Shown: in pieces, positions 23,551 through 43,713 of the stretch
Position numbering within the stretch: the first letter of the stretch is position 1
Layout: every line of letters starts with the position of its first letter
Notes under the pieces: generated by a model
Database searches by the model: none
The model's input: only the letters and a program-made list of their open reading frames with translations
Told to the model about the DNA's origin: nothing
Program-made: the position numbers and the translations under genes
Origin: a plasmid
Direction: 5' to 3' (one strand)
Length of the DNA: 64,000 nucleotides
Sequence record: NZ_CP024444.1

Positions 23551-24021
23551 TTCTTGAAGGACTTAATCATATCTCTATATTTTCATCCAAGTTTTCATGT
23601 ATCTTGGCGTTGAATTCGCTTAAAGGAAGTTTTCTGTTTCTAGCTTATGAAGTTCTCGCCTTTCTTACCAAAACATACTGAATTTTTTTATTAATAGCTA
23701 ATGTCAGATGCGCTCTAAGCTCGATGGTTGGGCAATCTTCACTTGAAATGTCATTAATGCTTTTTAAAATTTCAGTTTTTTAAAAATAGGTTCTGACAAT
23801 AACTGCTTCATCCCAAAAATTTAATAAGAATTTCTTGAGTAACGGGAGATAGACAATTTTTTATCACGGTTTGCGCCGCTTCTGCCCTATATGTAATGCC
23901 CTATATTTAACTTTTGAAATAGCGATAGCTTGATTTAGGTTTTGTCCAGCCAAAAACCGCAGGACTTTTATTCTGTCGCCTTATGGCGACAACGATTCGG
24001 GTTTTTGGGCTGTTGGGCTAA

Positions 24022-24333
24022 TTAAGGTTTATTGCTTTCCTTATTTTTCACTTTTTCGCGATTGGCTTTTATCCTATCAACCGATTTTTTAGTTTCATTA
24101 TCAAGTTGTGGTGCGGTGTTACCAACGGTTTGTAAATCAACTTTTAGTCGAATATTTTGGATATGTCGCTCTCGATTTTGGTTTTGTACATCGGCTTGAT
24201 GAAAAAATGCTTGGATAAAAAGCAAGGTCAAGCTAAAGACAAAAGCAAAAAGAAAGATACCGTTACGGACTTCTTTTAGTGTGCCTTTGGCTTTGTCGCC
24301 AATTTCTAACTTAAAGTTATTTGATAGTTTCAT
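24022..24333 (-). CDS. small single-TM membrane protein (last unit of the array)
   Basis: 103 aa, preceded by a degenerate copy of the conserved promoter/leader module at 24340-24480. Confidence 0.5.
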   Translation of the reverse strand: MKLSNNFKLEIGDKAKGTLKEVRNGIFLFAFVFSLTLLFIQAFFHQADVQNQNRERHIQNIRLKVDLQTVGNTAPQLDNETKKSVDRIKANREKVKNKESNKP

Positions 24334-24731
24334 AATGTTTTACCTTTTTGGAAGTAGAAATGTGATTGAGCCTATCTCGAAATCACCTGCTTATAATAAC
24401 GGTTTTAGCGTGTATTGTCAAGCGGTTTAACCGTTTTTTTCATGTAAAGAAAAGTAACCAAACATAGGCTGTGCCTAGCTTTTAGCCTATTTTGACTACC
24501 AAAAAATGCGTTACAATTTTCCCCATATTTAAGGTTTTTCTAAACCCATTTCACCCTGTATGTAATGGCTTTTCAAACCACTGTTCACCCTATAATTAAA
24601 GGCTTTTCTTGAATTAGCGATAGCTTGATTTAGATTTATCCGCACCCAAAAAAATGCCCAAGCAATCGCAAGGGCAAAGTTGACATTCGGGGAATGGGTA
24701 GGCAATCACGCCTACCGTTTTCATTTGGGGG

Positions 24732-25049
24732 TTACTGGTAGTAATTGTAGCAATCGCCAAGCAGTTTCATAAAGTCGTCACGACGGTTTTCCATTTCGGT
24801 TTCCACATCGTCAAATTTACCATCTTCGTTACATTCTTCATCCACGTAAAGGCTCACATCATCATCTAACATCAGGTAGCGTAAACCCTCAATGACAATG
24901 AAGTTACCTATGGCACGTACTGGGTAGCCATAGTGTACCCATGATGCAGTGAATTGTTCGGTGTCGCTGTCAAAACTGATATTTGGGCTAACCTTAAGAA
25001 TATCGTTAACAACTTCTTGGGCTTTGGTGTTATTGGTAGTGGTAGTCAT
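24732..25049 (-). CDS. small acidic hypothetical protein
   Basis: 105 aa and highly acidic (D/E-rich). The conserved module lies upstream at 25050-25200. Confidence 0.5.
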   Translation of the reverse strand: MTTTTNNTKAQEVVNDILKVSPNISFDSDTEQFTASWVHYGYPVRAIGNFIVIEGLRYLMLDDDVSLYVDEECNEDGKFDDVETEMENRRDDFMKLLGDCYNYYQ

Positions 25050-25210
25050 AATTTCGTTCCTTGTGGTTGGTATGGTTTCGAGCCTTTCTCGTTTCCATGT
25101 GCTTATTATGACGGTTTAACCGTTTATAGTCAAGCGGTTTAACCGTGTTTTACCCATTTTCCGACGAACGGTAAAACCGTTTTCGACCACATTTCAGACA
25201 TTTATCCCTC

Positions 25211-25500
25211 TATTTAAAAAACCATGACCACGGCTTTTGGTGGTAATGGTTGCAATCTTTTCAGGCAATCATTCCCACGGCTTTTGGTGGGTATGAGGCC
25301 CTCTTGTCTTAGCTCGGATAGTCAAGGCTGGCAAGTATGAAATGCAGGCAATCGCCTACGGATCATGCGGCTTGATGACTTATCGCGTTAGCAGGAAGTC
25401 AGTAAGACCATGAAGCCGTCAGCGAGTGACAAGAGTAATACTGCCAAGACTGACGTTGCTGGCGTCTTTTTGCCAGCAATCCGCCAAAGTCTTTATCAGT
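25211..25500. repeat. 290-bp GC-rich repeated element, copy 1 (candidate structured ssDNA/RNA element)
   Basis: It is about 97% identical to 27968-28258, non-coding, and contains internal direct repeats (CACCAAAAGCCGTGG twice) and the hairpin GCTGGCgtctttttGCCAGC. Confidence 0.6.
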
Positions 25501-25524
25501 TAAAAAACTAACCTTTGCGCAAAT

Positions 25525-26001
25525 TTATGAATTATCTAAAGTAGCTTTATTGGCTAATAACCGAATTAAATCTTTTAACTCATAATCTTTGTGAGCAATA
25601 GCACCAACCTTAATTAACCCATTCTCAATATGGTATAAATCATAAACAATAGCGTCTGATACCAAAACGGGTTGTTCATCAGGTACATTAATATCAATTA
25701 ATCGGATAACAGGTTCGCTATCATCATCCACGCCAGCCGAACCAAAACGTTCTGCACTCACAATAAAAGAAACATCGAAACCATCTAGCCAAAGTTCAAA
25801 TAAAAGACTTGCCGGGATATCACGACTACCTTTTTCATAATTGGCATACGTGGATTGGGCAATCGCTAATCGCTCATAAACAGATTTAGCCGTATAACCT
25901 AACCTTAACCGTTCTTGCTTTAATCGCTCACCGATAAACTTGAACGGATATTTTTTAAATTCAGCATCAATCTTTGCCATAAGTTGTTCTTGGGGGTTCA
26001 T
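25525..26001 (-). CDS. XRE-family (Cro/CI-type HTH) transcriptional regulator
   Basis: 158 aa with an N-terminal HTH (IGERLKQERLRLGYTAKSVYERLAIAQSTYANYEKG). Its own upstream region lacks the conserved promoter module but keeps the TAGCGATAGCTTGATATAG motif. Confidence 0.65.
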   Translation of the reverse strand: MNPQEQLMAKIDAEFKKYPFKFIGERLKQERLRLGYTAKSVYERLAIAQSTYANYEKGSRDIPASLLFELWLDGFDVSFIVSAERFGSAGVDDDSEPVIRLIDINVPDEQPVLVSDAIVYDLYHIENGLIKVGAIAHKDYELKDLIRLLANKATLDNS

Positions 26002-26153
26002 GAGTAAATCCTATGTACCAGTATAAGTATAGTCATATAAAATGCATTAAATATAGCCATTTGACCACATGTTGTCTATCACAACGATAGCATCCATAAG
26101 TAACATTTGTATTAGCGATAGCTTGATATAGTCCATCACGCCAAATTTTTGGA

Positions 26154-26193
26154 AAAAAACCCAACCAATTTTTTGGCTGGGCGTTGGGTTTGA
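26154..26193 (-). terminator. rho-independent terminator after unit 26247-26609
   Basis: On the minus strand a GC stem (CCCAACGCCCAGCC...GGTTGGG) is followed by a T7 run. Confidence 0.5.
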
Positions 26194-26246
26194 CTGGGTG
26201 ACTGGACGACCAACCTTACCGCATTGGGTAAGGTGGTTTTGCGTGA

Positions 26247-26609
26247 TTATAAAGCAAAGTCTTCGTCTTTGTTTTCGTCTTCAGTGTCTTCCGAGCGATA
26301 GGCTAGACGTAACTGCTGGAAGTAGTTAACCGTATCATAGCCCATACTATCGCGTGACTCACCAAGTACGATGACTTCCATGTAAGCGTCGTGAGCGTCT
26401 TTTGGCAGCTCTTCTTTGATGGTATCAGCTAACCAAAACAGCATAGCGTTATGGTAGCAACCTTCACATACCAAACCTAGACAGTGTGAGCCATACATGC
26501 CACGTCCTGAATACGTGCGAATACGGATATCACCAAAGTCTGACTCAAAGCGTTCTTTGCGTTTTACTAGGGCATCAAATAGTTGGTTGGTTAATTCTTC
26601 AGTAATCAT
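26247..26609 (-). CDS. hypothetical protein (Cys-containing, acidic C-terminus)
   Basis: 120 aa with the conserved module upstream (26620-26760) and a terminator downstream. Confidence 0.5.
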   Translation of the reverse strand: MITEELTNQLFDALVKRKERFESDFGDIRIRTYSGRGMYGSHCLGLVCEGCYHNAMLFWLADTIKEELPKDAHDAYMEVIVLGESRDSMGYDTVNYFQQLRLAYRSEDTEDENKDEDFAL

Positions 26610-26902
26610 AATCTCGTTCCTTTTGGTTGGGTGATGGTAGCGAGCCTATCTCGTTTCCATGTGCTTATAATAACGCTTTAACCGTGTATAATCAAGCGGT
26701 TTTAGCGTTTATTTAAGGGTTTTCCGACGAACGGTAAAACCGTTTATTTCGCAGTTTGCCGGGCGAACACCCCTATAATTGATGGCTTTTCATCTTTGTA
26801 TTAGCGATAACTTGATATAGTGCATCACGCCCACCCAACCGATGGCGATGCATGGACGAAAAAACCTAGTCACTTCTGACTAGGCTTTATGCATCCGGCT
26901 TG

Positions 26903-27799
26903 TTAAGCGGCTATGGGTTGTTTCTTCTGCGACCAATTTTCTAAGATGTAATTAACTGCTTTTTGGGCGTCCGCTGAAGCTTTGAAGATGGCGCGTTTGT
27001 CAGCTTTTAGCACTTGTAACCATGATTTTAAATAGCTTGCATGGTTGGTTAGTGTGGTTTCTAAGCATCCCATTTCAGCGCATAAAAAGCTTGCGCCTAG
27101 TTCTGCTACAAGTTCCTCCCGAGCGTATGCGGTATCACCGAATTTTTTACCGTATTGGCGGTTTAATCGTTTTTCTGCACCCGTGCTGTGGACTAGCTCA
27201 TGTCCAAGCGTCGCAAACTGTTCATCTAGGTTTACAAAGTCGCTTGCATTCGGCATGCATATCGTATCGATGTAGGGTTTATAACAAGCTGAATTGTAAC
27301 CGTATTCAATTTTTACGTCGGTATTTGCAAAGATGGTTTTTGCGGTTTCATTCTCTGCAATGGGTGTTAACGTTTCGTCTTCATCAGGGGTGATTGCGCT
27401 AATATCGCCATCCATTTGGCTAATGTTAAACACACAAAAACTATTTAAAAATGGGATGGTTTCGATGTCACCCTCTTTGTTTTCTTTCTCAATGACATTG
27501 TAATATGCTAGGCGTACCGATTTTGCACCTTTTTTAACCTGTAAGTTTTTGGCTTGGGCTTGCTTGTAGGTCATCCATACATTGTATTTATAATCGCTGT
27601 TAATCATGGCTTTGGCTAAGATTAGACGATTAACGCCTTTGTAGAGTTCACCTGTTGAGCCATTGACGCCACCGAAAATGTTGGTAACCGGACGGGTTTT
27701 CCAGCCTTTTTTCCATTGTGGTAAATCAGTTTCAAGAAGTTCAATCATTGCATTGGTTACTTCTTGGTACATATCGATTTTAGTAGCTGATTTTGTCAT
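26903..27799 (-). CDS. ardC: ArdC-like antirestriction protein (N-terminal ssDNA-binding domain plus zincin-like metalloprotease domain)
   Basis: N-terminus MTKSATKIDMYQEVTNAMIELLETDLPQWKKGW and the HExxH motif (LGHELVHSTGAE) match ArdC. The true start is the ATG at 27797-27799, which follows an AAAAGGA RBS. The ORF track extends upstream through the leader. Confidence 0.8.
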   Translation of the reverse strand: MTKSATKIDMYQEVTNAMIELLETDLPQWKKGWKTRPVTNIFGGVNGSTGELYKGVNRLILAKAMINSDYKYNVWMTYKQAQAKNLQVKKGAKSVRLAYYNVIEKENKEGDIETIPFLNSFCVFNISQMDGDISAITPDEDETLTPIAENETAKTIFANTDVKIEYGYNSACYKPYIDTICMPNASDFVNLDEQFATLGHELVHSTGAEKRLNRQYGKKFGDTAYAREELVAELGASFLCAEMGCLETTLTNHASYLKSWLQVLKADKRAIFKASADAQKAVNYILENWSQKKQPIAA

Positions 27800-27967
27800 G
27801 ATGTCGTTTCCTTTTGGTTGGGTGTTGGAATTGAGCCTATCTCGTTTCCATGTGTTTATAATAACGGTTTTAGCGTGTATAGTCAAGCGGTTTAACCGTG
27901 TATTTTATGCATTTTCCGACGAACGGTAAAACCGTGTATCTTCAGATGCCGGACACACAACCCAATA

Positions 27968-28258
27968 ATTAACAACCATGACCACGGCTTTTGGTGGTGA
28001 TGGTTGCAAGCTTTTCAGGCAATCATTCCCACGGCTTTTGGTGGGTATGAGGCCCTCTTGTCTTAGCTCGGATAGTCAAGGCTGGCAAGTATGAAACGCA
28101 GGCAATCGCCTACGGATCATGCGGCTTGATGACTTATCGCGTTAGCAGGAAGTCAGCAAGACCATGAAGCCGTCAGCGAGTGACAAGAGTAATACTGCCA
28201 AGACTGACGTTGCTGGCGTCTTTTTGCCAGCAATCCGCCAAAGTCTTTATCAGTTTAA
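27968..28258. repeat. 290-bp GC-rich repeated element, copy 2
   Basis: Near-identical to 25211-25500. It is followed by about 700 bp without a convincing ORF (28260-28945). Confidence 0.6.
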
Positions 28259-28901
28259 TCACCACGGCTTACCAACTAACCAATAACACCAACTAACCTA
28301 ACATCTTGCCCATCCATAAAATCCACATCAGCCTAAAACACCACAATAGACACCACCATGGCAAAACCTTATGCTAGAACCATAATAGCCTCTACTGCAT
28401 TAAGTATATATGCACTAACAAAGGTGACTTACCGGGTAACCACTTATGGCTAGTACATCACGCCAATATCAACCTATCATCGATACCAAACTCACCAAGC
28501 TTGGGCTAAAAAGTCAGGTAAACCAGTTCATTAAACTAACTGCCATAATCATGGTAATGCCAACAGTGATAGCAAATTATCTCGTCACACTGCTAACTAT
28601 TCATAAAAAAGCGAATCGATTAAGACTGCAGGCGCAATTGCCGATACCGACGTTAAAGCAGGCTTATCTTCTGCTTATCAAAGCAAACGACGTGTAAACC
28701 TGACAAGGTCTTAACCGTACTATAAAAGCACCTAAATAGCCTACCTGACTAAAGCCGTTGTATGGGGGTATCTATAAGTAACGGCTACGAGCAATAGATT
28801 ATCCAATCAATGCCTAAGCCAGTTAACTTCCACTTTGTTTTAGCGATAACTTGATGTAGGCTGCCAAACCACACGCCAGTCTTGCCATTAACCGCTGCCC
28901 A

Positions 28902-28928
28902 TAAAAAACCCTAGTGCGATGACTAGGG
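28902..28928 (-). terminator. rho-independent terminator after unit 28948-29334
   Basis: On the minus strand CCCTAGTCATCGCACTAGGG is followed by TTTTTT. Confidence 0.55.
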
Positions 28929-28947
28929 CTATTGGGTGGTAAGTGGG

Positions 28948-29334
28948 TTAACCTGTAAAGTTAAAGTAGTGAAAGCTTGCGCGTGTACCGTTACCTGTTA
29001 AGCCATCAGATAAGATACCATACAAACGGTATAGCACATCATGCACTGCATCCGAGCCACAGCTGCGTATCACTAGGTTACCGTTTCTATTCATACGCTC
29101 ACCAAGCACCTTATGAAGAATTGGCGTGATGTTCATAAATTTATTGTCTTTGACCAAACCAAAGCGGATTTGGTGGGTGTAACCGCTTGCTGATACATGG
29201 GCTTCATTAGCAACCACATCGACGGTGTGGCGGTTATTCCACATGTATTCAAGCACTTCGCCCATGTCGTTATCGACAGATGGGTTATCTTGCATCAGGG
29301 TAATGATATTTGGGTTTTGAATAGATGTTGTCAT
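28948..29334 (-). CDS. hypothetical protein
   Basis: 128 aa with the module upstream (29340-29470). Confidence 0.5.
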   Translation of the reverse strand: MTTSIQNPNIITLMQDNPSVDNDMGEVLEYMWNNRHTVDVVANEAHVSASGYTHQIRFGLVKDNKFMNITPILHKVLGERMNRNGNLVIRSCGSDAVHDVLYRLYGILSDGLTGNGTRASFHYFNFTG

Positions 29335-29624
29335 ACGTGTTTATCCTTTTGGTTGGGGTTGGTTGCGAGCCTATCTCGTTTCCATGTGCTAATAATAACG
29401 CTTTTAGCGTGTTTAATCAAGCGGTTTAACCGTGTTTATTGGTATTTTCAGATGAACGGTAACCGAAAAATGCCGACCCTACCCACCCATAAGTACGACC
29501 CATTTGCACTAGCCATCACTTGAAAATAGCACCAATCATGCCTGCCAGCTGTGCCCATCAACCACGCCAGTCAACAATAAAAAAACCTGTCGTCTGACAG
29601 GTCTTAGTAAGTGTGGGGGTGGCA

Positions 29625-30557
29625 TTAGGCGCGTGAGAGTAAAGCTGGTGTGTTTTGCTCAAATGGCGTCACGATGTAGCTAACGTTGCCATTAAAATCA
29701 GCACTACCAATGCATGATAACGGCTTACCAATGAAATTGTCTTTAATCGGTCTGCCTTTGGCGTCACTGGTAACCGCCTGTACCAATAAGATGGTATCAA
29801 AGTTTTCGCTATTCATGCCAAGCTTGACCACTTGGTAGAACAGTTTGGCATCGGGTTTGCTAGTTGAGCTTGCCTGTAAAAAATCACCGACCTTTAATTG
29901 CTCGTTGTATTGGTTTTCTACCATATCCAAGCTTAGGGTGAGCTGCTTGTAAACTTCAATCAAGGCTTCAAACAAGTCAGCCGGGTTATCAAAATGGCAA
30001 GCACTGCTTTGGTTAAATACGGCAATACCGATAGGGCGTTTACCGTCATAAGCCACAATCATCATGATACTAGCGTTCAAGTAGCTTAAAATTACATCGG
30101 TCCAGGTGGCGTTGAATTTTTCTTTGACCAGTGCGCGACGTCCCTGTACCAATTGATTGCTTTCAAAGTTGTTGCGTGACTCGTTATCGTCGACGACAAG
30201 TTTACCCTTTGGGCTTAATTGGTTGTAGGCAACTTGGGCTTGCTTGATGGTAAATTGGTCAATGTATTTGACATACTGACTAATTTCTTCAATGGTGGTT
30301 ATCATGTCAGGATAAAACAAGGTATTTAGGTTTTTAAGCGGCTGCCCGGTGGGTACGTGCATCTTAGACTGGTTGTCGTGCGTTCTAATCACAGTAAAAG
30401 GTGGGGTCAGTAGTGTGCCTTTGCTGTGGATTTTGCCGTCATCATTGACCAGCGCATTGTGCCCAGCTTTGCTTTCAGCCATCCAGCTGCCCAGCATCAG
30501 CTTATGATTTTTACTGTATTTGAAGTTATCAATAATAGCGATTAGGGTGTTTTTCAT
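29625..30557 (-). CDS. family B paralog (unknown function; motifs GTLLTPPFT, IMxxFA, QVGD, IRCIAxD)
   Basis: 310 aa. It shares conserved blocks with 31896-32939, 33051-34037, 36738-37736, 38502-39515 and 44536-45495. Confidence 0.55.
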   Translation of the reverse strand: MKNTLIAIIDNFKYSKNHKLMLGSWMAESKAGHNALVNDDGKIHSKGTLLTPPFTVIRTHDNQSKMHVPTGQPLKNLNTLFYPDMITTIEEISQYVKYIDQFTIKQAQVAYNQLSPKGKLVVDDNESRNNFESNQLVQGRRALVKEKFNATWTDVILSYLNASIMMIVAYDGKRPIGIAVFNQSSACHFDNPADLFEALIEVYKQLTLSLDMVENQYNEQLKVGDFLQASSTSKPDAKLFYQVVKLGMNSENFDTILLVQAVTSDAKGRPIKDNFIGKPLSCIGSADFNGNVSYIVTPFEQNTPALLSRA

Positions 30558-30848
30558 GATGGTTATCCTTTTGGTTGGGGTTATGGTGTCGAGCCTATCT
30601 CGTTTCCATGTACTTATAATAACGCTTTAACCGTGTATAGTCAAGCGGTTTAACCGTTTATATACAAGCTATTCGACGGATGGCTGGCGCAGGCGCGATG
30701 TGTGTTAACCCACACTCCCCCATACATAAGCTCTTATAGCACTAGCTATCGCTTGAATTAGATCAGCTCGCCTGTCCAATACCCACCGATGCGATGGGCA
30801 TAAAAAAACTTGCTAGGGTTAACTAGCAAGTCTGTTGTTTGGGTGGGC

Positions 30849-31607
30849 TTATGCTAAGGGACGTTTTTTGCTCTTGGATTTATCATTTTTACGGCATTCA
30901 TTTAATGCCACAAAACTTTTAGCAAGGGTTAGGATGCCTTCTTTATATACTTTCCAAAAATCTAAGGCATCGAATTCCATTCGGGCTATCTCGCTACTGC
31001 TAAAATTTTCCCATTCTTCGATGGTGTGGCATTTACAGCCGATACGGATTTTGTCATTCATCAAGCTGATAAACCACTGATAATCATATAAACACAATAC
31101 CGGATAAGGTAGCTTGGCGAAGGTGATATTTGCACCACGAAAAATGGCTTGTTCAATGTCGCATTGGGTGAAGTCGGTTTGTTTCAATGATGCGTTGGTA
31201 AAGTTGGTATTAATGGTATTGGCATTGGTAAAAATTGAGCAATCAAGGTTACAGCCATCAAGATGGGTTAATTCTAGGTTGCTATCCGTAAAGTTACAAT
31301 TGCTAAGGTTGGCTTGATAAAAATAAGCTTGGCGTAAATCTGCGTTGGTAAAATTTACCCGACGTCCTTTTACATTGGTCATGTTGGTTTGGCATAAGTT
31401 AGCATTTTCAAAATTGGCATTGCTGATATCGCAGTTAATAAGGCTTGCACCGAATAAATTTGCACCGCTTAGGTTTGCACCTGTTAAATCAAACCCTTTT
31501 AAGTCCATGTCTTTTAAGTCGATGTTGCGTAAGTCGGCTTTAACTAGGGTGTCTAAATCAAGTGTGATAGTCGATTTGTTGTATACATGCTTGATGGTGA
31601 TAGCCAT
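30849..31607 (-). CDS. pentapeptide-repeat protein with conserved C-terminal RIGCxCH domain
   Basis: 252 aa with tandem A(D/N)LxX pentapeptides (ANLSGANLFGASLINCDISNANFENANL...) and the C-terminus ...WFISLMNDKIRIGCKCHTIEEW. Confidence 0.75.
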   Translation of the reverse strand: MAITIKHVYNKSTITLDLDTLVKADLRNIDLKDMDLKGFDLTGANLSGANLFGASLINCDISNANFENANLCQTNMTNVKGRRVNFTNADLRQAYFYQANLSNCNFTDSNLELTHLDGCNLDCSIFTNANTINTNFTNASLKQTDFTQCDIEQAIFRGANITFAKLPYPVLCLYDYQWFISLMNDKIRIGCKCHTIEEWENFSSSEIARMEFDALDFWKVYKEGILTLAKSFVALNECRKNDKSKSKKRPLA

Positions 31608-31654
31608 GAGAGTATTCCTTTTGGTTGGGTGATGGTAGCGAGCCTATCTCGTTT

Positions 31655-31700
31655 CCATGTGCTTATAATAACGCTTTAACCGTGTATAATCAAGCGGTTT
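31655..31700 (-). promoter_or_regulatory. representative copy of the conserved sigma70-type promoter of the array (-35 TTGATT, 17-nt spacer, -10 TATTAT) bracketed by CGGTTAAACCG-like sites
   Basis: On the minus strand the sequence reads CGGTTAAACCGCTTGATTATACACGGTTAAAGCGTTATTATAAGCACATGG. The -10 is at 31663-31668 and the -35 at 31686-31691. The same block recurs upstream of about 35 genes with at most a few substitutions. Confidence 0.55.
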
Positions 31701-31895
31701 AACCGTGTTTTTACCCATTTTCCGATAAACGGTAAAAGCGTTTTTCGGGTCGGCTGACACGTTTCCCTCCAGGTAAGAATGTTTTTTTGATATAGCGATC
31801 GTTTGATATAGGCCATCACGCACGCCCAAACAGCGAGCCAAAAAAAACGCCTTACTATCAAGTAAAGCGTTGGGTGGGTGGGTCAAGGCTTATCG

Positions 31896-32939
31896 CTAAA
31901 TACCGTATTTGGACTTAAAAGTTTCAGTCGGAAAGTTGGTCATGACCTTGTCATGTTTGGCAGTCACCATGATTTGTGTATTAACGACAGTCACAAAACA
32001 TTCAATCGGTGGTGTGATGTATGCGCCTTGTTTTGGCATAGTGGTCGCTAACATGGGGTTGTCGGCATCTTCAACAAAACCACTAATACCACGGATGATT
32101 AACGTTTGACCACCATAAAAATCATCGTTGACCACATCAATCACTTCATAGTTTTGACATAAGCCCATTAATAGCCATTTTGAATAAGCACTGCTATAAC
32201 AAATGATATCACCCACCTGAAGTGACGGGTTTGATTGGGTGTTAAGTGATGGCTTGATAGCATGACCAAGTTCGACATATAAATCTGCCATTAATTTTAA
32301 AATCAAGTTTTGACCTTTGTATTCAATTACGCCACGATGGGTAAACAACACAAGCCCACGATGGGTACTAGCGGTGTTATAGGCAAATACCATAAACTCA
32401 CCATCACGGTAGACGCTTAACAATTCGCTATCAGCATAGTCAAGGTCGGTACAGATGTAGTTTTGGCGAGCAAGGTACAATGGGTCGTTTAAAAATGCGT
32501 TGGGGTCTTGGGGGTGTTGGGCAATATCAAGCACCGCTTTGTCAGTGGCTTTGTAGGCATCATGGAATGAATTGAGCATATTTTGGTCAAGGGTTTGGAC
32601 GTATTGTTCCATCTTAGTTTTGCAATCATATACCACATGGTAACTGCTCACCCATTCACCTTTATAAAAGGATGGATATTTACCACTATTGGGGTTTTCC
32701 ATCACCCAAATGGCGGTTTCTTTGCTGTATTTAATCTCGCTATTGGGTAAAAACATCGCTTTGGTTACGATAAAGCCGTTAGTGCCGTTTTGTCTGATTA
32801 ATGGCTTGATGCTATCAATGCGGTCTTGGATTTCATCAATCAGTTGGGCGTGGTCATGGCTTGTAATCACGCGCTTAGTAAGGTCGTAAAAACGTGGGAT
32901 TGATGTGTTTTGTGGTTTGAGTAAAACGATATCGCTCAT
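31896..32939 (-). CDS. family B paralog
   Basis: 347 aa with the shared motifs (LPNSE..., MVFAYN, QVGDII, IIRGISG). Confidence 0.55.
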   Translation of the reverse strand: MSDIVLLKPQNTSIPRFYDLTKRVITSHDHAQLIDEIQDRIDSIKPLIRQNGTNGFIVTKAMFLPNSEIKYSKETAIWVMENPNSGKYPSFYKGEWVSSYHVVYDCKTKMEQYVQTLDQNMLNSFHDAYKATDKAVLDIAQHPQDPNAFLNDPLYLARQNYICTDLDYADSELLSVYRDGEFMVFAYNTASTHRGLVLFTHRGVIEYKGQNLILKLMADLYVELGHAIKPSLNTQSNPSLQVGDIICYSSAYSKWLLMGLCQNYEVIDVVNDDFYGGQTLIIRGISGFVEDADNPMLATTMPKQGAYITPPIECFVTVVNTQIMVTAKHDKVMTNFPTETFKSKYGI

Positions 32940-33050
32940 GGGGTTATCCTTTTGGTTGGGGTCGGATGCGAGCCTATCTCGCTGTCCATGAGAGTATTAT
33001 AACGGTTTTACCGTGTATAATCAAGCGGTAAAACCGTTTTTTATGGTTAA

Positions 33051-34037
33051 TTAAGCCACTGCCGGATGATGGTTTGGGTGGGTACCATAAACATCAAGCA
33101 CATTTAAGGCGTGTCTTGTCCCTGCCAGTCCATTAAATATCACCACACCATCCGCGCCTGTGTACAAGCAGATATCAAGGGGTGCGCCAATATACTTACC
33201 GCGAATAGGTTGGAACTTTTTATCAAACATAATCGCTTGCATCTTGCCTGTCTGCATCTGCCCACTATTTGGCGTATCAAGGTGGGTGACTTCATAAAAA
33301 TGGGTATGAGAGCATTCGTCCATGGCATTGGCTAAAATCGTACCTATCTCAATTGGCTTGCTGTCATTGGCGTGGCTTAATGCCTTTTGGGTATCGACGT
33401 GGTCTTCAATCGCATCATATAGGTGCGCCATGACCAATAGAATACTATTCCACCCGTGATAAAAATAGGTGGCATGGGGCAAGCACAAGGCATAGCCTTT
33501 TTTGTGTTCTTCGGTGGTGGCAAACAATAAAATATCATCATCAAGCCAACTGCCAATTAACTCAACATAGCGAGCATTAAAATAGCTTTTTACGCCCTCT
33601 AAGCGATTGCTATACAATGGGTGCAAGTGGCTGTGGATGTGGTAGCCTTGCTTTTGGACAATGGCTTTGGTCTGTTCGCTTGCATCCTTGAGCCTTTCTT
33701 CAAAGTCAGTGATTTGCTGACGGTCACGCTCAAGCACGAATTGACGAGCCGACCACAACTCCCCAAAAAAGTAACTAGGCGTGGTGTATTCAGCATCAAG
33801 TAACGGGCAATCATTGCGTGACGTGAGCACATAACGCCCATTGTTATTGACCGATAGCAAACAAGGCGGCTGAAATAGCGTACCATCACAAAAATAGACG
33901 CCATCTTGAACGTGGCTTTTTTTGGTGACCCGTTGAAAAGGTTGTGAGCAAGTTTTGCTTAGTCCGCGCATTTCTTCGCATAGGGCTAGATGGTCGGTGC
34001 TGTGTACGATACTTTTCATCAAAACATATAAATTCAT
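33051..34037 (-). CDS. family B paralog (second gene of a two-gene unit)
   Basis: 328 aa. It has no full module of its own; the module lies upstream of the preceding 38-aa peptide gene. Confidence 0.5.
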   Translation of the reverse strand: MNLYVLMKSIVHSTDHLALCEEMRGLSKTCSQPFQRVTKKSHVQDGVYFCDGTLFQPPCLLSVNNNGRYVLTSRNDCPLLDAEYTTPSYFFGELWSARQFVLERDRQQITDFEERLKDASEQTKAIVQKQGYHIHSHLHPLYSNRLEGVKSYFNARYVELIGSWLDDDILLFATTEEHKKGYALCLPHATYFYHGWNSILLVMAHLYDAIEDHVDTQKALSHANDSKPIEIGTILANAMDECSHTHFYEVTHLDTPNSGQMQTGKMQAIMFDKKFQPIRGKYIGAPLDICLYTGADGVVIFNGLAGTRHALNVLDVYGTHPNHHPAVA

Positions 34038-34113
34038 GGCAATTATCCTATTGGTTTTAAGTGGTGGGTGGGCGGTAAGTGAGCCTTTCTCAACTAACCG
34101 TTAATCAGCATTA

Positions 34114-34230
34114 TTATTTTTTAAGCACGCGTTTAACACTGGGGGCGACTTTGCGTTGAGCCGTTCCCAAATAGCGATACATCATTAAAGACAATGGGTA
34201 AATAAAAGCACTGATTTGTAAAAAATTCAT
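34114..34230 (-). CDS. 38-aa hydrophobic peptide (MNFLQISAFIYPLSLMMYRYLGTAQRKVAPSVKRVLKK)
   Basis: Not in the ORF track. An ATG follows the conserved module and AAAAGGA RBS, and the peptide has a single transmembrane-like segment. Confidence 0.4.
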   Translation of the reverse strand: MNFLQISAFIYPLSLMMYRYLGTAQRKVAPSVKRVLKK

Positions 34231-34519
34231 GGCCGTTCCTTTTGGTTGGGTGATGGTAGCAAGCCTATCTCGCTGTCCATGTAGTTATAATAACGCTTTA
34301 ACCGTGTATAATCAAGCGGTTTAACCGTGTTTTTACCCATTTTCCGATAAACGGTAAAAGCGTTTTTCGGGTCGGCTGACACGTTTCCCTACAATTTACT
34401 ATCCTTGTACTAGCTATGGCTTGATGTAGATCAGCTCGCCTGCCTAACGCCTGCCAAAATCGGTACAAAAAAAGCCACAATACGATGATTGTAGCTTTGG
34501 GTGGGTGGGCGTGATGCGA

Positions 34520-35266
34520 CTAGGCGACTTGCTTTTTAGATGGCGTGATTTTTTTAAGCTGTTGCTCACTAAACGCGGTAGCGATGGCTAAAATTTCCTC
34601 TTTGAATTCTTCCCAAAACTCAATGGCGTAGTCATCCATATCAATGATTTCGTTACCATCAAAATTACGCCATTCTTCAATGCTATAACATTTACAGCCA
34701 ATGCGTAGCATATCGTCACATACGCTGATAAACCACTCATAGTTATACAGGCAAAGCAATTTTTTGGGTAATACGGTGCAATCTAACACGGTATAGTCAA
34801 AAACCGTTCGACGAATATCCGACTTCATCAAATTAGCTTCAGTTAAATTGGCACAGGTAAATTGCGTGGTGTCCAAATTGGTGTTGTTAAAGACCACCCA
34901 TTGAAAATTTGAACGGTATAAATTGGATTTGCTTAAATTCACATTGTCAAAAATTGCATGTTTAAAGTCGGCATTGGAAGCCACCACCATTGCCATATTC
35001 GCATTACTAAAGTCGGCATTGCCTGCCCTTGAGCCATTTAAATTGGCGTGAGTCATGTTGGCATGACTAAAATTAGCTTCAAACAGTTCGCAGTCGGTCA
35101 TAATAGCCCGTGATAAATTGGCACCGCTAAAATTTGCCTTGGATAAATCAACACTGGTAAAAATAGCACCAGCTAAGTTTTGACCGCTAAAGTCATAGCC
35201 TTGCAGGGTATCAGCATCGATAACTAGGTCGTCTTTCTTGCCAAAAAATTTAATGGTAATACTCAT
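34520..35266 (-). CDS. pentapeptide-repeat protein with conserved C-terminal RIGCxCY domain
   Basis: 248 aa with pentapeptide tandems and the C-terminus YEWFISVCDDMLRIGCKCYSIEEW. Confidence 0.75.
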   Translation of the reverse strand: MSITIKFFGKKDDLVIDADTLQGYDFSGQNLAGAIFTSVDLSKANFSGANLSRAIMTDCELFEANFSHANMTHANLNGSRAGNADFSNANMAMVVASNADFKHAIFDNVNLSKSNLYRSNFQWVVFNNTNLDTTQFTCANLTEANLMKSDIRRTVFDYTVLDCTVLPKKLLCLYNYEWFISVCDDMLRIGCKCYSIEEWRNFDGNEIIDMDDYAIEFWEEFKEEILAIATAFSEQQLKKITPSKKQVA

Positions 35267-35604
35267 GGGTGTGTCCTTTTGGTTGGGGGTCGGAATTGAG
35301 CCTATCTCGTTTCCATGATGCTATTATAACGGTTTTAGCGTGTTTAATATAACGGTTTTAGCGTTTATTTATCGATTTTCCGATAAACGGTTTTAACGTT
35401 CACCACGCCCACCACCCACCTACCCCGACCCTTAGTCATGCTTGCCTTAGAGTTCGCTTGCGCTAGGTGCATCCTTGCTACCGGATAAAACCATCGCCAA
35501 AAAAAATGCTATACAGGTGTATAGCATTGACTGGTGTGACTAAGCTTCATTAGACTAGACGGCATCAGGCATGTCATGACTGCCGTATGGGTTGGCATAG
35601 TCAG

Positions 35605-36432
35605 TTAGCTGACTTGTTTTTGTCCCTGAAAGATGCTCACGCCCATACCGACATCGTCATGTTTTTGTTGATATAAGCCGTCTTTAAATTGGTAGTCTTT
35701 TTCATACGAATGGTAGAAAGCACAGGCGATTTCGAGTATTTCATATTTATGCCAACGCCAAAACGATAAGGCTTCATCGCCCATATTCTCAATTTGCTCT
35801 GCGTTAAAGTCTTTCCATTGTTTGATGGTATGACACTGGCATCCAATACGGATGGTATCGGCACAAATAAAAATTGGCCAGTTGTAATGATACAAAAACA
35901 TCACCTTAAAAGGAAATAAGGCGGTCATGATGTTTGTTCCCCAAAAAATAGCGTAGCGGATGTCTGCTTGCTGAAAGTCGGCACAGCTAATAGTGGCGTT
36001 AAAAAAATTGGTTGCTAGTAAATCTGCCTTATCAAAACTTGCTTGCACAAGACTTGCGCCCGTGAATTGGGCATACTGACAGTTGGCATCATGAAAATTA
36101 CTAAAATTAAAATTGGCATGACTGGCATGAATGCTTTTGAGATTGGCGTGTTTAAAGCGTCCCTTCAGTAGCGTTGCGCTAGTAAAATTAGCCCCTTGTA
36201 AATCAGCGTTTTCAAAATTGACATGATTTAACGTCGCCTTATCAAAACGCGCATACTGTAAATTGCATCCGCTAAAATTGGCATTGGTTAAGTCCATGCC
36301 GATAAAGTCAGCACCTTGTAAATTGGCACCGCTAAAATCATGCCCCACAAGACTGTCGCCCTCGATGGTTGCAAGGATGGCTTTTGATTTGAAGGAATTA
36401 TGCGTAAGGTAGCTTTGAATTTCGATGGTCAT
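35605..36432 (-). CDS. pentapeptide-repeat protein with conserved C-terminal RIGCQCH domain
   Basis: 275 aa with pentapeptide tandems and the C-terminus ICADTIRIGCQCHTIKQW. Confidence 0.75.
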   Translation of the reverse strand: MTIEIQSYLTHNSFKSKAILATIEGDSLVGHDFSGANLQGADFIGMDLTNANFSGCNLQYARFDKATLNHVNFENADLQGANFTSATLLKGRFKHANLKSIHASHANFNFSNFHDANCQYAQFTGASLVQASFDKADLLATNFFNATISCADFQQADIRYAIFWGTNIMTALFPFKVMFLYHYNWPIFICADTIRIGCQCHTIKQWKDFNAEQIENMGDEALSFWRWHKYEILEIACAFYHSYEKDYQFKDGLYQQKHDDVGMGVSIFQGQKQVS

Positions 36433-36737
36433 ACTTTTATCCTTTTGGTTGGGTGTTGGAATTGAGCCTTTCTCGTTTCCATGATGCTATTATAACGGTT
36501 TTAGCGTGTTTAATATAGCTGTTTAACCGTGTTTTTACTCATTTTCCGACGAACGGTAAAACCGTTTTTAGGTTGGCTGGCACGTTTCCCCGTACTTAAT
36601 GACCCTTGTACTAGCCATATCTTGAGATATGTACTAGCCATATCTTGAGATAGCCGATCGGCACCGACTGCCGTTTGTTAGCCATCAGCCACAAAAAAGC
36701 ATGGTGTGGTTACCATGCTTGGGCATATCAAGTCATC

Positions 36738-37736
36738 TTAGCGTGGGACGGCTTCAACTACCCTTAATCGGGCATTGTACAGCAAAAGCGACTGCTGACT
36801 ATCTACTTTTAAATAACCGTTGACGTGTTTGGCAATACAAGCAATCTCACTGCCTAAAAATGCATTGGTGATTGGATTGTTTAGGCTGTCATAGGCAATA
36901 CAGCGCAGTTTAATGGCGTTGCCTTGTTTGCTGATGTTCTCGCCTACTTGGGTGATTTGGTAGTATTGGCTCGGGTTGGTGTTGTTAAACCGTTCAAGTC
37001 TTACAATACTACCGACACCGATATCTAGCATATTTTCCGGTTGTTGGTTGTTGTAAAGAAATAATTTGGCGGTTTCACAAAAACCATAGAGTTTGCTCAT
37101 GACGTCTAAAATGCTATTAAGTCCATAGCTTAAATACATACTGTTGTCGCCATACAGCGCATAGCCTTGTGAATAGCTTTCTTTGGTGGGCGTGGTGCAA
37201 GCAAATAGCATGATGGTATCATTGGCATAACTGCCGATAAGTTCAGCTTGCGTATTTTGAAAATACTGCTTGGTGAATGCTAAACGTGGGGCATGCAGTG
37301 GGTGAGCTTGGCTTTGCTCGCTCACCTGGTTGTTTTGTGCCAAGTTGCGCACGTCTTTACTGGCGTTTTCATACGCAAATTGAAAGCATCCGATTGCGCT
37401 TAAATCATCACATTTGATACGCAACAGGGCAATTTCTTCGCTCAAAAAGCGGTGATTTTTTTGTAGCTCGGTACAATCGATTAAATACTCGCCATTGATG
37501 GGTTGTACGGTGTAAAAATCTTCTTCCCCCACGACATTACTACGCTCAAGGGTTGTGATAGGCTGTAACAAGGTGGGCGTGGTGACAAAACCGGATGCAG
37601 TTTTTTCGATGGTGGCACGGTGCTGTTTCTCAAGCTTGAATAACTGCTTAATGAGTGCCGAATGATTATCGCTTGCCATGACAAGACGCATGACTTGTTC
37701 AGGGGTGATAGGGGCTTGGGTGCTATGGCTTGGCAT
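36738..37736 (-). CDS. family B paralog
   Basis: Start reassigned to MPSHSTQAPI (ATG at 37734-37736, after AAAAGGA). The ORF track extends 95 codons upstream through the module. Confidence 0.55.
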   Translation of the reverse strand: MPSHSTQAPITPEQVMRLVMASDNHSALIKQLFKLEKQHRATIEKTASGFVTTPTLLQPITTLERSNVVGEEDFYTVQPINGEYLIDCTELQKNHRFLSEEIALLRIKCDDLSAIGCFQFAYENASKDVRNLAQNNQVSEQSQAHPLHAPRLAFTKQYFQNTQAELIGSYANDTIMLFACTTPTKESYSQGYALYGDNSMYLSYGLNSILDVMSKLYGFCETAKLFLYNNQQPENMLDIGVGSIVRLERFNNTNPSQYYQITQVGENISKQGNAIKLRCIAYDSLNNPITNAFLGSEIACIAKHVNGYLKVDSQQSLLLYNARLRVVEAVPR

Positions 37737-38045
37737 AATCTTTTTCCTTTTGGTTGGGGTCGGATGTGAGCCTATCTCACAATCCATGTGCTTATAATAA
37801 CGCTTTAACCGTGTATAATAAAGCGGTATTAGCGTTTTTCTACCCATTTTCCGATGAACGGTAAAAGCGTTTTTAAAGTCGGCTGGCACGTTTCCCTGTA
37901 CTTTAGGGGGTTTACCTGATTTAGTGATAGCTTGGGCTAATACTGGGTTAGTAGGCTTGGTCGCAGCGGTATGCCAATCGGCATTAAAAGCTTGGGCAAC
38001 AAAAAACCCATGCACTGGCACGGGTTTGTTTGGGTGGGCGTGGGG

Positions 38046-38165
38046 TTACATTCTGGCACAGCGAAACACATAATAAATCACGGCAATGAATAATACCAAA
38101 ACAACGTTGCTGTCAAATAAAGACATAATGGCATTAAAGGCTTCGAGTTGTGATGAATATTGCAT
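38046..38165 (-). CDS. 39-aa hydrophobic peptide (MQYSSQLEAFNAIMSLFDSNVVLVLFIAVIYYVFRCARM)
   Basis: Not in the ORF track. It has its own full conserved module (38170-38300) and one predicted transmembrane helix. Confidence 0.4.
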   Translation of the reverse strand: MQYSSQLEAFNAIMSLFDSNVVLVLFIAVIYYVFRCARM

Positions 38166-38501
38166 ATTTTTTCCTTTTGGGTTGGGTGTAGGAATTGAGC
38201 CTTTCTCGTTTCCATGATGCTATTATAACGGTTTAACCGTGTATAATCAAGCGGTATTAGCGTGTATCTATGGTTTTCCGACGAACGGTAAAACCGTTTT
38301 ATCGGGCAAATCCTAGCCCGACCGCCCTAAAATTCATGTTATTTACTTGCGTTAGTGATAGTTTGACTTAGGGTGCACCAGCCACAGATGCACTAGCCGC
38401 GCCTGTTGCCCAGCTTGCCAGCAAAAAAACCACCAACCGATTTGGCGGTCAGTGGTCGGGCAGAATTTACTAGCTTGGATAGCCGCTAAAATTGCCTGTG
38501 C

Positions 38502-39515
38502 TTAGTGTGCGTTAGGCTCATACTTGGCAAGTTCAGTAATGCCACCAAGCGTACTGCCAGCAAATGGCATTAGGTAGCAAGCAATATAGCCTTCACGATA
38601 TAGGTGGACATACGCATTCATTTTGGGCGAAATCATACTATTTTTAACAGGCAGGGATTTGTCGTCATGCAAGATAGCGCGTAGGGTTATCATAACGGCT
38701 TGTTTGTTTAATGTGGGACTTACCTCTACCACCCGGTAGTAACGATAACAGCGGATGTTGAGATTGCGAAAATCTTCAAAAATATCACCCACCTGTACCA
38801 GCTTTTGAAATGGCGCATTTTCAATAATCACCGCAGCTGCGATGACTTGGTACAATCGGCACATGACGGTAAAACAATGTTGCAACCCACTAAAAAACTC
38901 GATGCCATCAGCATGGCATAGGGTGAAACCAGGGTAATCATGATTGGCGGTCATAAATACCATAATCGATCCATCCAAATAGCTACCCACCAAATTGGTA
39001 ACATTCATATTTTGCGCTGAAAAATAACGTTCAGCAATTTTTAGTCGTCCATCATGCAAGGTATCTAGCACCGACGTCACTTCGCTGGCATGATTGTTCT
39101 GAATTGCCATTATGGTTGCATCATACGCCTTGTTATACGCATCTTTAAACTCTTGGATGGCGTTATGGTCGGTTTCTTTCACATATTTTTTAGCCTGTGC
39201 CAACGACTCAAAGTAACGATACGGTTTAGAGTCGATGCGACTTATTGAGTACATATACGCTCGCCAGTCCGTCTTGCCCATCCATTGTTTTTTAATGTTG
39301 TCACGGTTTAGGGTGAATGGTGGCAGTAATAACGTACCGCTACAGACATAATCACTCCCCTGTTTGGTAAGATTGTAATCATACGCTTGGGTGGCACTTT
39401 GCAAGTCTTCAATCAATTCATCATGGTTGCGACTGGAAAATAAAGCGACACACAGGTCAACTAAGGTAGCAAAACCTTTGGTGGTTGCCGCGGCTTGGGC
39501 AATGGCAGTAGACAT
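38502..39515 (-). CDS. family B paralog
   Basis: Start reassigned to MSTAIAQ (ATG at 39513-39515). Shared motifs are GTLLLPPFT, IMVFMTA and QVGDIFED. Confidence 0.55.
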   Translation of the reverse strand: MSTAIAQAAATTKGFATLVDLCVALFSSRNHDELIEDLQSATQAYDYNLTKQGSDYVCSGTLLLPPFTLNRDNIKKQWMGKTDWRAYMYSISRIDSKPYRYFESLAQAKKYVKETDHNAIQEFKDAYNKAYDATIMAIQNNHASEVTSVLDTLHDGRLKIAERYFSAQNMNVTNLVGSYLDGSIMVFMTANHDYPGFTLCHADGIEFFSGLQHCFTVMCRLYQVIAAAVIIENAPFQKLVQVGDIFEDFRNLNIRCYRYYRVVEVSPTLNKQAVMITLRAILHDDKSLPVKNSMISPKMNAYVHLYREGYIACYLMPFAGSTLGGITELAKYEPNAH

Positions 39516-43626: not shown

Positions 43627-43713
43627 AAAAACGTTCCTTTTGGTTGGGGTTGGTTGCGAGCCTATCTCGTTTCCATAATGAAATTATAGCGGTTTAAGGG
43701 ATTAAGTGCTTAC

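Follow-up and report, generated by a model that had tools for sequence, protein, structure and literature searches.

What does a short sequence do that recurs, always in the same orientation, ahead of one gene after another on a plasmid? The question is raised by a stretch of 64,000 nucleotides from the plasmid record NZ_CP024444.1 (the window), in which an array of about 42 co-directional genes with 32 promoter modules occupies 23915..62050 of the minus strand. A preliminary description of this DNA had pointed out a conserved motif between the terminator of one gene and the promoter of the next. It had proposed a cassette boundary or recombination site analogous to attC sites or to the promoter early stem-loops (PeSLs) of phages, with a second regulator-binding site or upstream element as the fallback. 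The fallback is the best-supported reading and the one favoured here. At a rough probability of 0.45, the motif is a double-stranded, sequence-specific site for a putative array-wide DNA-binding protein, the binding being predicted from the sequence. The cassette reading is largely refuted by the mapping of breakpoints.

The motif and the unit it heads

The motif was read on the minus strand, since all array genes lie there. Its core, built from 43 distinct anchored copies in the window and its closest relative, is CTAnnTCAAGnnATsrCTAnnnCAA, 25 bases long (C1 T2 A3 n n T6 C7 A8 A9 G10 y n A13 T14 s r C17 T18 A19 n n n C23 A24 A25). It holds about 33 bits of information. It is non-palindromic: a CTAnnnCAA half-site is repeated directly at an offset of 16 bp, and an invariant AT lies in between. 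With at most one mismatch allowed, the window contains 31 matches to the 14-base skeleton CTANNNCAANNNATNNCTANNNCA, all on the minus strand and all within 23915-61941, against 0.14 expected by chance. The motif is therefore real, and there is about one copy per 1.2 kb of array. The 19-mer by which it was first described, TAGCGATAGCTTGATATAG on the plus strand, is matched 21 times at three mismatches or fewer, always on the plus strand and between 23.9 and 62 kb (0.02 by chance). All 14 positions listed at that time match a motif copy. The conserved core runs 6 nt past this 19-mer, to ...CTAnnnCAA.

The window is collinear with the Moraxella osloensis plasmid pMOXF1 (CP040258.1, 248 kb) at about 98% identity. 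There, 30 copies with at most one mismatch lie on the array strand, all in the orthologous array; weaker matches outside it are at about chance level, and the motif is absent from the other ~205 kb. When a 201-nt module was compared by blastn (distant mode) with the 72,556 plasmids of PLSDB, only pMOXF1 matched. Exact-pattern scans found nothing in genome contigs (two scans) or viral contigs (one scan) and a single short contig among metagenome contigs, and the phage collection held no module homologs.

A loosely conserved G-rich box lies on the 5' side of the motif on the minus strand. It has two forms, GGCGTGATG and GGCAGGCGAGCTGAT, and is the CAYCACGCC or CAGCTCGCCTGCC of the preliminary description read on the plus strand; the gap given there as N(4-8) is in fact 0-3 nt on the plus strand. 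Variants of the box are weakly linked to variants in the right half of the motif. A consensus scan that recovers the module promoters and upstream terminators placed no promoter at the motif on either strand. Three-frame stops on the plus strand and micro open reading frames (ORFs) over the motif were dropped as coincidental. The copies, all on the minus strand, are as follows.

26107..26131, CTATATCAAGCTATCGCTAATACAA, the copy singled out in the preliminary description; an orphan, followed by the XRE gene's own promoter
26132..26142, the G-rich box just 5' of the preceding copy, GGCGTGATGGA on the minus strand (CATCACGCC on the plus strand)
23915..23938, after the last array gene; followed by two S-blocks, no promoter module
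24610..24633, followed by three tandem S-blocks
26797..26820, reference unit, between the ArdC gene and gene 26247..26609
28836..28859, orphan, followed by a 1.1-kb non-module region
30738..30761, one mismatch
31788..31811
34406..34429
35443..35466, one mismatch
36607..36653, two overlapping copies through a 23-bp tandem duplication; a single copy at the pMOXF1 ortholog
37917..37940, one mismatch
38348..38371
39697..39720
41224..41247, unalignable with its pMOXF1 ortholog 5' of position 1, the same from position 1 on
41903..41926, similarity to the pMOXF1 ortholog likewise begins sharply at position 1
42898..42921
44411..44434, one mismatch
45676..45699, one mismatch
46690..46713
48055..48078
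49035..49058, two mismatches to the core
50717..50740
52184..52207, beside a site of unit gain or loss whose junction (52007-52164) is in the promoter module, outside the motif
54241..54264; the segment around it (gene 3' end, terminator, box, motif, S-block) has a paralog at 54895-55344
54918..54941, one mismatch; followed by an atypical promoter
55925..55948
57331..57354
58287..58310
59285..59308
60800..60823
61918..61941, first (most upstream) unit; no array gene upstream

A copy stands at both ends of the array, so that there are n+1 copies for n units, and the first unit carries one though no array gene precedes it. Three intact orphans (23915, 26108 and 28836) have no promoter module downstream. 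One of them is kept before the XRE gene, as had been noted; this gene has no module and uses a promoter of its own (TAGACA-17-TATATT), overlapped by the palindrome CTATCgttgtGATAG. The motif is thus separable from the promoter, as the orphans lack the module and promoter cores also occur without the motif. The statement that almost every unit has a copy is to be qualified for the short (87-175 bp) terminator-less intergenic regions, which lack the motif even where a promoter core is present.

The plan of a unit was derived from an alignment of 31 intergenic modules and a second alignment (A1) of 24. On the coding strand, a gene is followed by an intrinsic terminator, an unalignable spacer, the box, the motif, a short spacer and the S-block (TTAAnTATrGGGGAAA). 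A variable, often hairpin-prone stretch then leads to operators O1 and O2, the -35 element TTGATT, operator O3 and the -10 element TATTAT. Behind the -10 come a hairpin in the 5' untranslated region (UTR) with an AWAGG loop, CCAACCAAAAGGA (the Shine-Dalgarno region) and ATG. The motif is the first conserved block of this repeated module of about 200 bp, and similarity between paralogs runs from the motif to the start codon. It is, as had been recognized, a separate block at the upstream edge of the gene-plus-promoter module. The remaining parts of the reference unit are given below.

26859..26885, minus strand, terminator of the ArdC gene; the motif begins 38 nt past its T-run
26770..26783, minus strand, S-block (TTAAnTATrGGGG family), the second conserved upstream block
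26730..26744, minus strand, operator O1, an AACGS-N5-SCGTT palindrome
26667..26709, minus strand, promoter core with O2, -35 TTGATT, O3 and -10 TATTAT; unit-level crossovers map here
26634..26660, minus strand, 5'UTR hairpin with the conserved AWAGG loop

Spacing is tight from the -35 element to ATG (85-91 nt) and loose from the T-run to the motif (13-93 nt). From the motif to O1 it is mostly 66-90 nt, drifting in single-nucleotide steps. The motif does lie between the upstream terminator and the promoter module; its distance from the promoter, put earlier at about 100 bp, is 112-135 nt to the -35 element and mostly 115-121. That it belongs to the intrinsic terminator is ruled out by its place downstream of the T-run and outside the stem.

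One palindrome, AACGS-N5-SCGTT, is common to the three operators, and the window contains 25 exact matches to it. O1 is at about -75, O2 abuts the -35 element and O3 lies between -35 and -10 (for example at 26667-26744). Together O2 and O3 make a direct repeat of 23 bp, detected in many units by Tandem Repeats Finder. Pairing of O1 with O3 as a stem was considered and rejected in favour of operators, the S/S positions agreeing in 12 units and disagreeing in 10. A reading of TGGCACG in the neighbouring block as a sigma-54 element was ruled out, the -12 element being absent. The 5'UTR hairpin, GGAAACGAG-AWAGG-CTCnnTTCC, is conserved in each unit with an invariant loop and is followed by the invariant ribosome-binding region CCAACCAAAAGGA; its stem occurs as GGACAGCGAG/CTCGCATCC and as GGAAACGAG/CTCAATTCC. 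Its role may be post-transcriptional control or stabilisation, shared by the units.

The S-block AAAnCCnTTAAnTATAGGGnnAA also occurs in repeats (24440-24600 and 23860-23915), three in tandem after motif 24610 and two after motif 23915, and on this account it behaves as a separate element. A 460-bp segment duplicated at 90% identity (25045-25504 and 27795-28258) takes the place of box, motif and S-block ahead of the promoters of gene 24732..25049 and of ardC. Within it are CCACCAAAAGCCGTGG repeats, and a 47-nt slippage distinguishes it from pMOXF1. Psychrobacter arrays (contigs L017 and L018) have recurring copies of GCTGGCACGTT just past terminators, and its inverted form ACGTGCCAGCC recurs in modules of the window between S-block and O1 (for example at 42837-42966 and 55864-55993). 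In some units of the window the motif lies between the two orientations, which together make a long-range inverted repeat around it.

Breakpoints and constraint

If the motif marked the edge of a mobile cassette, exchanges would be expected to fall on it. Look-ups of four array proteins yielded about 40 contigs in which the array recurs at 98-100% identity, several of these contigs being rearranged, and junctions were placed by three-way alignment. Five unit-level rearrangements could be mapped. Four junctions lie within identical promoter core (21-65 nt), one lies in coding sequence and none lies at the motif.

Gain or loss of a 157-aa unit (present in pMOXF1, L026, L027, L029 and L040; absent from the window and L020-L025): mosaic in the promoter module, window 52007-52164, short of motif 52184
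Loss of about eight to nine gene units in L036: within 63 nt of identical promoter core
Tandem duplication of four units in L045: within 65 nt of identical core
Deletion of 24 kb in L046: within a 21-nt identical O2 stretch of two short motif-less modules
Deletion in L040: inside two coding sequences

Intact motifs are likewise spared by the smaller differences between window and pMOXF1. They comprise a 47-nt slippage, a 99-nt indel at a promoter and insertions of insertion sequences (ISs) or transposons; a 54-nt deletion with CATG microhomology removes the relic of a decayed motif. Homologous recombination within promoter cores accounts for the gain, loss and duplication of units, and the motif rides along as the outermost block of the module. 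With the junctions in the promoter core and none at the motif, the array diversifies by recombination between promoter repeats. The unit with gene 41345..41719 and both its flanking intergenic regions (40400-42000; pMOXF1 219.7-221.4 kb) is about 93% identical to its ortholog, while its neighbours exceed 99%; this is an imported recombination tract that runs from just past the upstream terminator to the -10 element of the next promoter.

Pfam scans of the 59 ORFs of the window detected DDE transposases and TnpB but no recombinase of the tyrosine or serine type. The two resolvases and one DUF4102 integrase of pMOXF1 lie in transposon-rich regions 60-150 kb from the array, so that no such enzyme is encoded beside the array there either. 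A 388-aa array protein was considered as an integrase and dropped, its weak Phage_int_SAM_5 match being below threshold and no relative being found in the PDB. A site for Xer recombinases was also rejected. Such dif/pdif sites consist of a 6-bp spacer between two imperfectly palindromic arms of 11 bp each (...ATAA-N6-TTAT...), and no arms of this kind are seen in the consensus.

Excision and integration from motif to motif, in the manner of attC, is improbable in the light of these data, although several observations had made it attractive. The motif flanks each full unit, both ends of the array included, in n+1 copies. Conservation sets in sharply at motif position 1 in paralogs and in orthologs (two ortholog pairs have unalignable upstream spacers), and box and right-half variants are weakly linked. 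In the Psychrobacter contigs L017 and L018, unrelated sequence switches to a block of 96% identity (100% at the switch) inside the upstream element, and one paralogous segment of the window carries the motif together with the 3' end of the upstream gene. We read all these observations as marks of an independent block rather than of a crossover site. The 24-kb deletion joins two modules that both lack the motif, and unit order is constant in the large majority of the ~40 related contigs.

Integron cassettes do share with the array one co-oriented copy per unit boundary and a series of mostly promoter-independent small genes whose function is not known. The motif differs from attC in having no imperfect inverted repeats, no folded bottom strand and no R'/R'' cores, and there is no IntI. 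Column counts from -34 to +69 around the motif show no GTTRRRY or RYYYAAC core, and no IntI-type recombinase with attI lies beside the array, which is bounded by dotD/traI/dotB and korA-parA-parB. Each unit here has its own promoter and terminator, and the junctions fall elsewhere than at the motif. The comparison with PeSLs of T4-like phages (PMC2839356, PMC4122927) holds in part. There, too, promoter/terminator modules lie between small, variable, co-directional genes and act as portable homology for the gain, loss and swap of units, and gene-unit diversification by recombination between modules has been proposed (PMC4122927). In the array the module as a whole behaves in this way, four of the five events crossing within modules, but the motif itself does not, as the crossovers lie in the promoter core. 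The array modules are also longer (about 200 bp), include operators and extra upstream blocks, and are found on a plasmid and not in a phage.

Recombination between modules raises a second possibility, namely that the motif has no function of its own and is a hitch-hiking part of the module, kept alike by gene conversion or unequal crossing-over and adding only homology. Such recombination is frequent. The modules evolve in concert, one orthologous module being a mosaic of two pMOXF1 modules and several being 83-91% identical where their neighbours are 97-100% identical, and one relic motif has decayed and been deleted while its unit was retained. The pattern of conservation points the other way. 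In the 43 distinct copies CTA, CAA, AT, CTA and CAA show little or no variation, the positions between them are free to vary and the flanking spacers are unalignable. Conversion would homogenise whole tracts and all positions within them; since invariant triplets here alternate with free positions, gene conversion alone does not account for the motif. Between the window and pMOXF1 (31 ortholog pairs), the 14 invariant positions changed in 3 of 434 cases (0.7%) and the 11 variable positions in 11 of 341 (3.2%; Fisher p=0.012). In the population contigs, box and motif have 9 segregating sites in 820 (1.1%) against 81 in 1900 (4.3%) for the next 95 nt (p=6e-6), although this downstream excess may come partly from conversion between modules. 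The polymorphism evidence for constraint is supportive, not decisive. The motif would also be a poor substrate for homologous recombination, as few pairs of copies share more than ~10 consecutive identical bases and no crossover lies there, and analogous elements are kept in sister arrays. A motif without a function of its own is thus unlikely.

A candidate protein site and its competitors

Four properties of the motif, together with its position beside family-specific operators, suggest the target of a plasmid-encoded DNA-binding protein: it is family-specific, strongly directional and free of structure, and it holds ~33 bits. RNAalifold on the 24 modules of alignment A1 leaves the motif unpaired and returns only the O1 and O3 palindromes and the UTR hairpin (consensus -4.7 kcal/mol). 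Thirty DNA folds of individual copies have no structure in common at the motif. The KorA-like and ParB/KorB-like genes that flank the start of the array lend further support to a binding site. Precedents exist. The conserved upstream (CUP) elements of IncN plasmids are repeats in a leading region that are bound by ArdK (PMC6289460, citing Delver and Belogurov, 1997), and KorB of RK2 acts from distal sites together with promoter-bound KorA (PMC11790492).

Sister arrays fit the same picture. Homologs of ArdC with 46-48% identity are found in like-built arrays of the two Psychrobacter contigs (L017 and L018) and of the metagenome contig L019, which carry ArdA, ArdB/KlcA-type, SSB and PcfJ genes. 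In L019 the element after the terminator is GTGATGTTATTAGTTAA..GTTAGCAAA (19 copies, most of them 72-79 nt before the -10 element). In L017 and L018 it is TCTAAAAGCATAG..GCTACnACAT, with 8 copies each at 117-134 nt before the -10 element. All copies are co-oriented. Smith-Waterman comparison with shuffled sequences found no significant similarity between the upstream elements of the three array families (p=0.11 and 0.67). A family-specific element in each sister array is as predicted by co-evolution of the site with a binder that the plasmid encodes.

In the mechanism proposed here, the three palindromic operators of each promoter would take a dimeric repressor, an arrangement predicted to give a burst of expression on entry into a new cell and then shut-off. 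The motif would take a second, non-palindromic binder acting from a distance. Its candidate roles are those of a distal operator, an activator, an architectural site or an insulator between the upstream terminator and the next promoter.

Several observations weigh against a protein site of this kind. The motif is non-palindromic, and with an offset of 16 bp its half-sites face opposite sides of the helix, an unusual arrangement for a simple dimer. The distances to O1 (66-90 nt) and to the -35 element (112-135 nt) drift by single nucleotides over more than one helical turn, and this speaks against any contact with the promoter complex that depends on strict phasing. Promoter cores that work without the motif occur in pMOXF1 (4.8 and 33.7 kb) and in intergenic regions of the short type. 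The three promoter-less orphans are intact, while one promoter-bearing copy is decayed and is deleted in pMOXF1, so that upkeep of the motif does not track the promoter. Unique sequence upstream has 15 segregating sites in 880, and the motif is not significantly lower (p=0.31). Our estimate stays below even odds because of the unphased spacing, the promoters that work without the motif and the contrast between intact orphans and a decayed copy. The pattern of upkeep fits an array-level or post-terminator role (insulator, architectural site or distal operator) better than a classical upstream activator.

The motif-less promoter cores of pMOXF1 deserve a fuller description. Those at 4.8 and 33.7 kb have no motif, S-block or O1, and the latter lies just before a DNA methyltransferase gene. 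In all, cores that drive genes outside the array are found at 4.83-4.88, 33.70-33.75 and 41.25-41.40 kb, with O2, -35, O3, -10 and the UTR hairpin, and all without the motif. The methyltransferase is a class I DNA methyltransferase dependent on S-adenosylmethionine, and another of these cores stands at the head of a second, small array that includes ssb and a pentapeptide-repeat gene.

A familiar binder was also considered, namely integration host factor (IHF), which would bend the DNA between terminator and promoter. The Escherichia coli IHF consensus is WATCAANNNNTTR, and motif positions 4-16 (wATCAAGnnATsr) match its WATCAA, its first T and its R. Intergenic elements of the repetitive extragenic palindromic (REP) and repetitive IHF-binding palindromic (RIP) type, which follow terminators, bind IHF. 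The second T of TTR is missing in all 43 copies, which have C, G or A there; the conserved 3' CTAnnnCAA and 5' CTA are no part of an IHF site; and the elements of the sister arrays have no IHF-like core. An IHF site accordingly deserves little credence, and no known factor explains the motif.

The unphased spacing, the motif-less promoters and the intact orphans fit equally well a signal in the entering single strand, for instance a priming site for the complementary strand. If the array is a leading region, the plus strand would be both the transferred strand and the template of all array genes. Each motif would then enter the recipient just after a promoter and its gene, and the unit would be made double-stranded, and hence expressible, on entry. 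All copies lie on one strand, occur only in the array, being absent from the other ~205 kb of pMOXF1, and recur about once per 1.2 kb, and the orphans without a promoter stay intact. The promoters cannot work single-stranded, so that conversion to duplex must come before expression. The array contains SSB and ArdC genes, and the orientation of its genes fits the transferred-strand rule for leading regions (PMC11541004).

Such a signal is nonetheless doubtful. The leading region and the identity of the transferred strand are themselves conjectural, neither oriT, the origin of transfer, nor a relaxase having been located. The established initiation signals (Frpo, the single-strand initiation sites ssi and the G4 type) are hairpins; a conserved fold is lacking in the motif. 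Any element of a directional module would be co-oriented as a matter of course. A sequence-specific primase is not known for such plasmids. It is unlikely that the motif acts, in place of a transcription-factor site, as a per-unit transferred-strand signal whose priming or loading function makes each unit duplex and expressed within seconds of entry. If this were true, it would provide a hairpin-free alternative to Frpo promoters for early leading-region expression.

The array shares with the Frpo and ssi elements of F-like and IncI leading regions (PMC11541004) a position in a putative leading region, before SSB and anti-defence genes on one strand. Those elements are long hairpins that rebuild a duplex -35 and -10, which neither the motif nor the promoter does here. 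One might still suppose that the motif is the partner strand of a Frpo-like promoter, its plus-strand sequence GCTTGATATAG pairing with the -35 region in the entering strand. The consensus does form a 10-pair helix with 81% of cells paired, against 25-35% in slid controls, and the modules fold slightly better than shuffles (mean z -1.9 and -1.6, the former on the plus strand). The helix shows no compensatory change, shuffled controls pair equally well (81.4%), and variation on one side simply breaks the pair. The negative z-scores are due to the palindromic operators and the UTR hairpin. Minimum-energy folds place the -35 element in the loop of a hairpin between O2 and O3 and leave the -10 element unpaired, and the module promoters are on this ground ordinary duplex promoters, not Frpo-like ones. 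Pairing of this kind is very improbable.

The array, its plasmid and its relatives

The window is part of a pMOXF1-like megaplasmid of Moraxella osloensis. Among the array genes are those for ArdC (26903-27799), SSB (43714-44208), an XRE protein (25525-26001) and an AcrVA2-like protein (52259-53326), and the annotation adds pentapeptide-repeat proteins. Precomputed Pfam hits in the array are to the AcrVA2-like protein and a DpnD-PcfM protein, and the majority of the remaining array proteins have no family assigned.

To the left of the array lie genes for DotD-like, IncI TraI/DotC-like and DotB-like proteins and parM, and pMOXF1 also encodes a DotM-like protein and a type IV coupling protein. 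MOB-suite classes pMOXF1 as non-mobilizable, and a scan of 20 large pMOXF1 proteins revealed no relaxase, only the DotM-like and coupling-protein domains. To the right, related contigs show a divergent operon of korA-like, parA and parB/korB-like genes. The window includes 75 codons from the start of the KorA-like gene (63776-64000), with the palindrome TTGCATGCAA at the gene's promoter. Upstream of the gene, at 63386-63603 and nowhere else in the window, are five ParB-type palindromes, TTGCGTTAACGCAA or AAACTTGCGTTAACGCAAACTTT, which sit in 102/46-bp repeats (63365-63608). The korA-parA-korB genes form an IncP-like central control operon beside the array.

The array as a whole looks like a leading region or a kil-kor-like regulon for establishment or anti-defence, a status judged from gene content and layout. 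This reading follows from the use of one strand as template by all array genes, from the ArdC- and SSB-type content and from the flanking transfer genes. Samuel et al. (PMC11541004) describe leading regions of this pattern, with all genes on one strand and sharing a template. At 22906-23550, in the interval that separates the last array gene from the dotD-traI-dotB-parM operon, there are 16 tandem copies of the 40-bp unit TTACGCTCAAACCCATTTTTATACGTTATTTGCCATTTTC (96% matches); the same repeats are found in pMOXF1 at 202.5-203.0 kb. They could be iterons, a centromere or oriT-associated repeats, and they sit where oriT would be expected if the array is a leading region.

Mobile elements account for some of the differences from pMOXF1 and among the contigs. 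An insertion of 18 kb relative to pMOXF1 (4497-22715) has direct copies of an IS5-family element at its ends (4497-5483 and 21729-22715, 93% identical). Its cargo includes genes for a UvrA-like ABC ATPase, NDH-2, an esterase, DUF3422, GFA and zinc alcohol dehydrogenase proteins, glutamate-cysteine ligase, a ZIP transporter and cytochrome bd subunits, as well as an IS3 element. The insertion resembles a composite transposon, its genes having formaldehyde and oxidative stress as their theme. The sole Rfam match of the window, an ALIL frameshift pseudoknot at 20930-21046, lies inside the IS3 element. An IS200/IS605-type element with TnpB and without TnpA (62123-63356) separates the KorA-side repeats from the first array unit. 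At the corresponding place in contig L042 it is missing; other copies occur elsewhere in pMOXF1 and inside the array in contigs L024 and L049.

Two plasmid systems resemble the array most closely in their control. The CUP elements of the IncN plasmids pKM101 and R46 (PMC6289460) are ArdK-bound repeats upstream of many small genes of an establishment region, anti-restriction genes included. They too combine a promoter with regulator sites, and their regulon is switched on at entry and then repressed, as is predicted here. The array has repeats, a consensus promoter, palindromic operators and ArdC, SSB and AcrVA2-like genes, in what would be a leading region and with the binding of a regulator predicted. 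It differs in sequence, with no homology found by blastn against PLSDB (only pMOXF1 matched), and in scale, as 32 modules spread over 38 kb compare with a handful in IncN plasmids. The motif lies ~115 nt from the promoter and is separable from it, and the backbone is of Dot/Icm type and not IncN.

The kil-kor regulon of the IncP-1 plasmid RK2 (PMC11790492) shares with the array the neighbouring KorA-like and ParB/KorB-like genes, palindromic operators that overlap the core promoter, near-identical promoters reused before several small genes whose function is not known, and a second conserved site ~100 nt or more upstream, as in distal KorB operators. The KorB operator of RK2 is a 13-bp perfect palindrome bound by a dimer of the ParB family, whereas the motif is non-palindromic. 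The ParB-type palindromes TTGCGTTAACGCAA are here found only at 63386-63603 and not in the array, and contact of KorA or KorB with the motif is not implied. Given the lack of sequence homology, the non-palindromic form and the placement of the ParB-type palindromes elsewhere, the motif belongs among the conserved upstream elements of plasmid establishment regulons, yet is a member of neither the CUP/ArdK nor the KorB family.

The array as a whole is more remarkable than the motif. Leading-region anti-defence islands decide whether a plasmid survives on entering a new host, and the joint switching-on of such islands is known for a few enterobacterial plasmids only (Frpo, CUP/ArdK and KorA/KorB). 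The array is an extreme case, with about 42 genes, 32 copies of one promoter-operator module and a separable 25-bp site for each unit. Its breakpoints show how such an island diversifies, by homologous recombination at promoter repeats as in phage PeSLs and with no integron-like system. The identity of the binder would expose the control logic of a Moraxellaceae family of transfer plasmids and would give a handle on ~40 candidate anti-defence genes.

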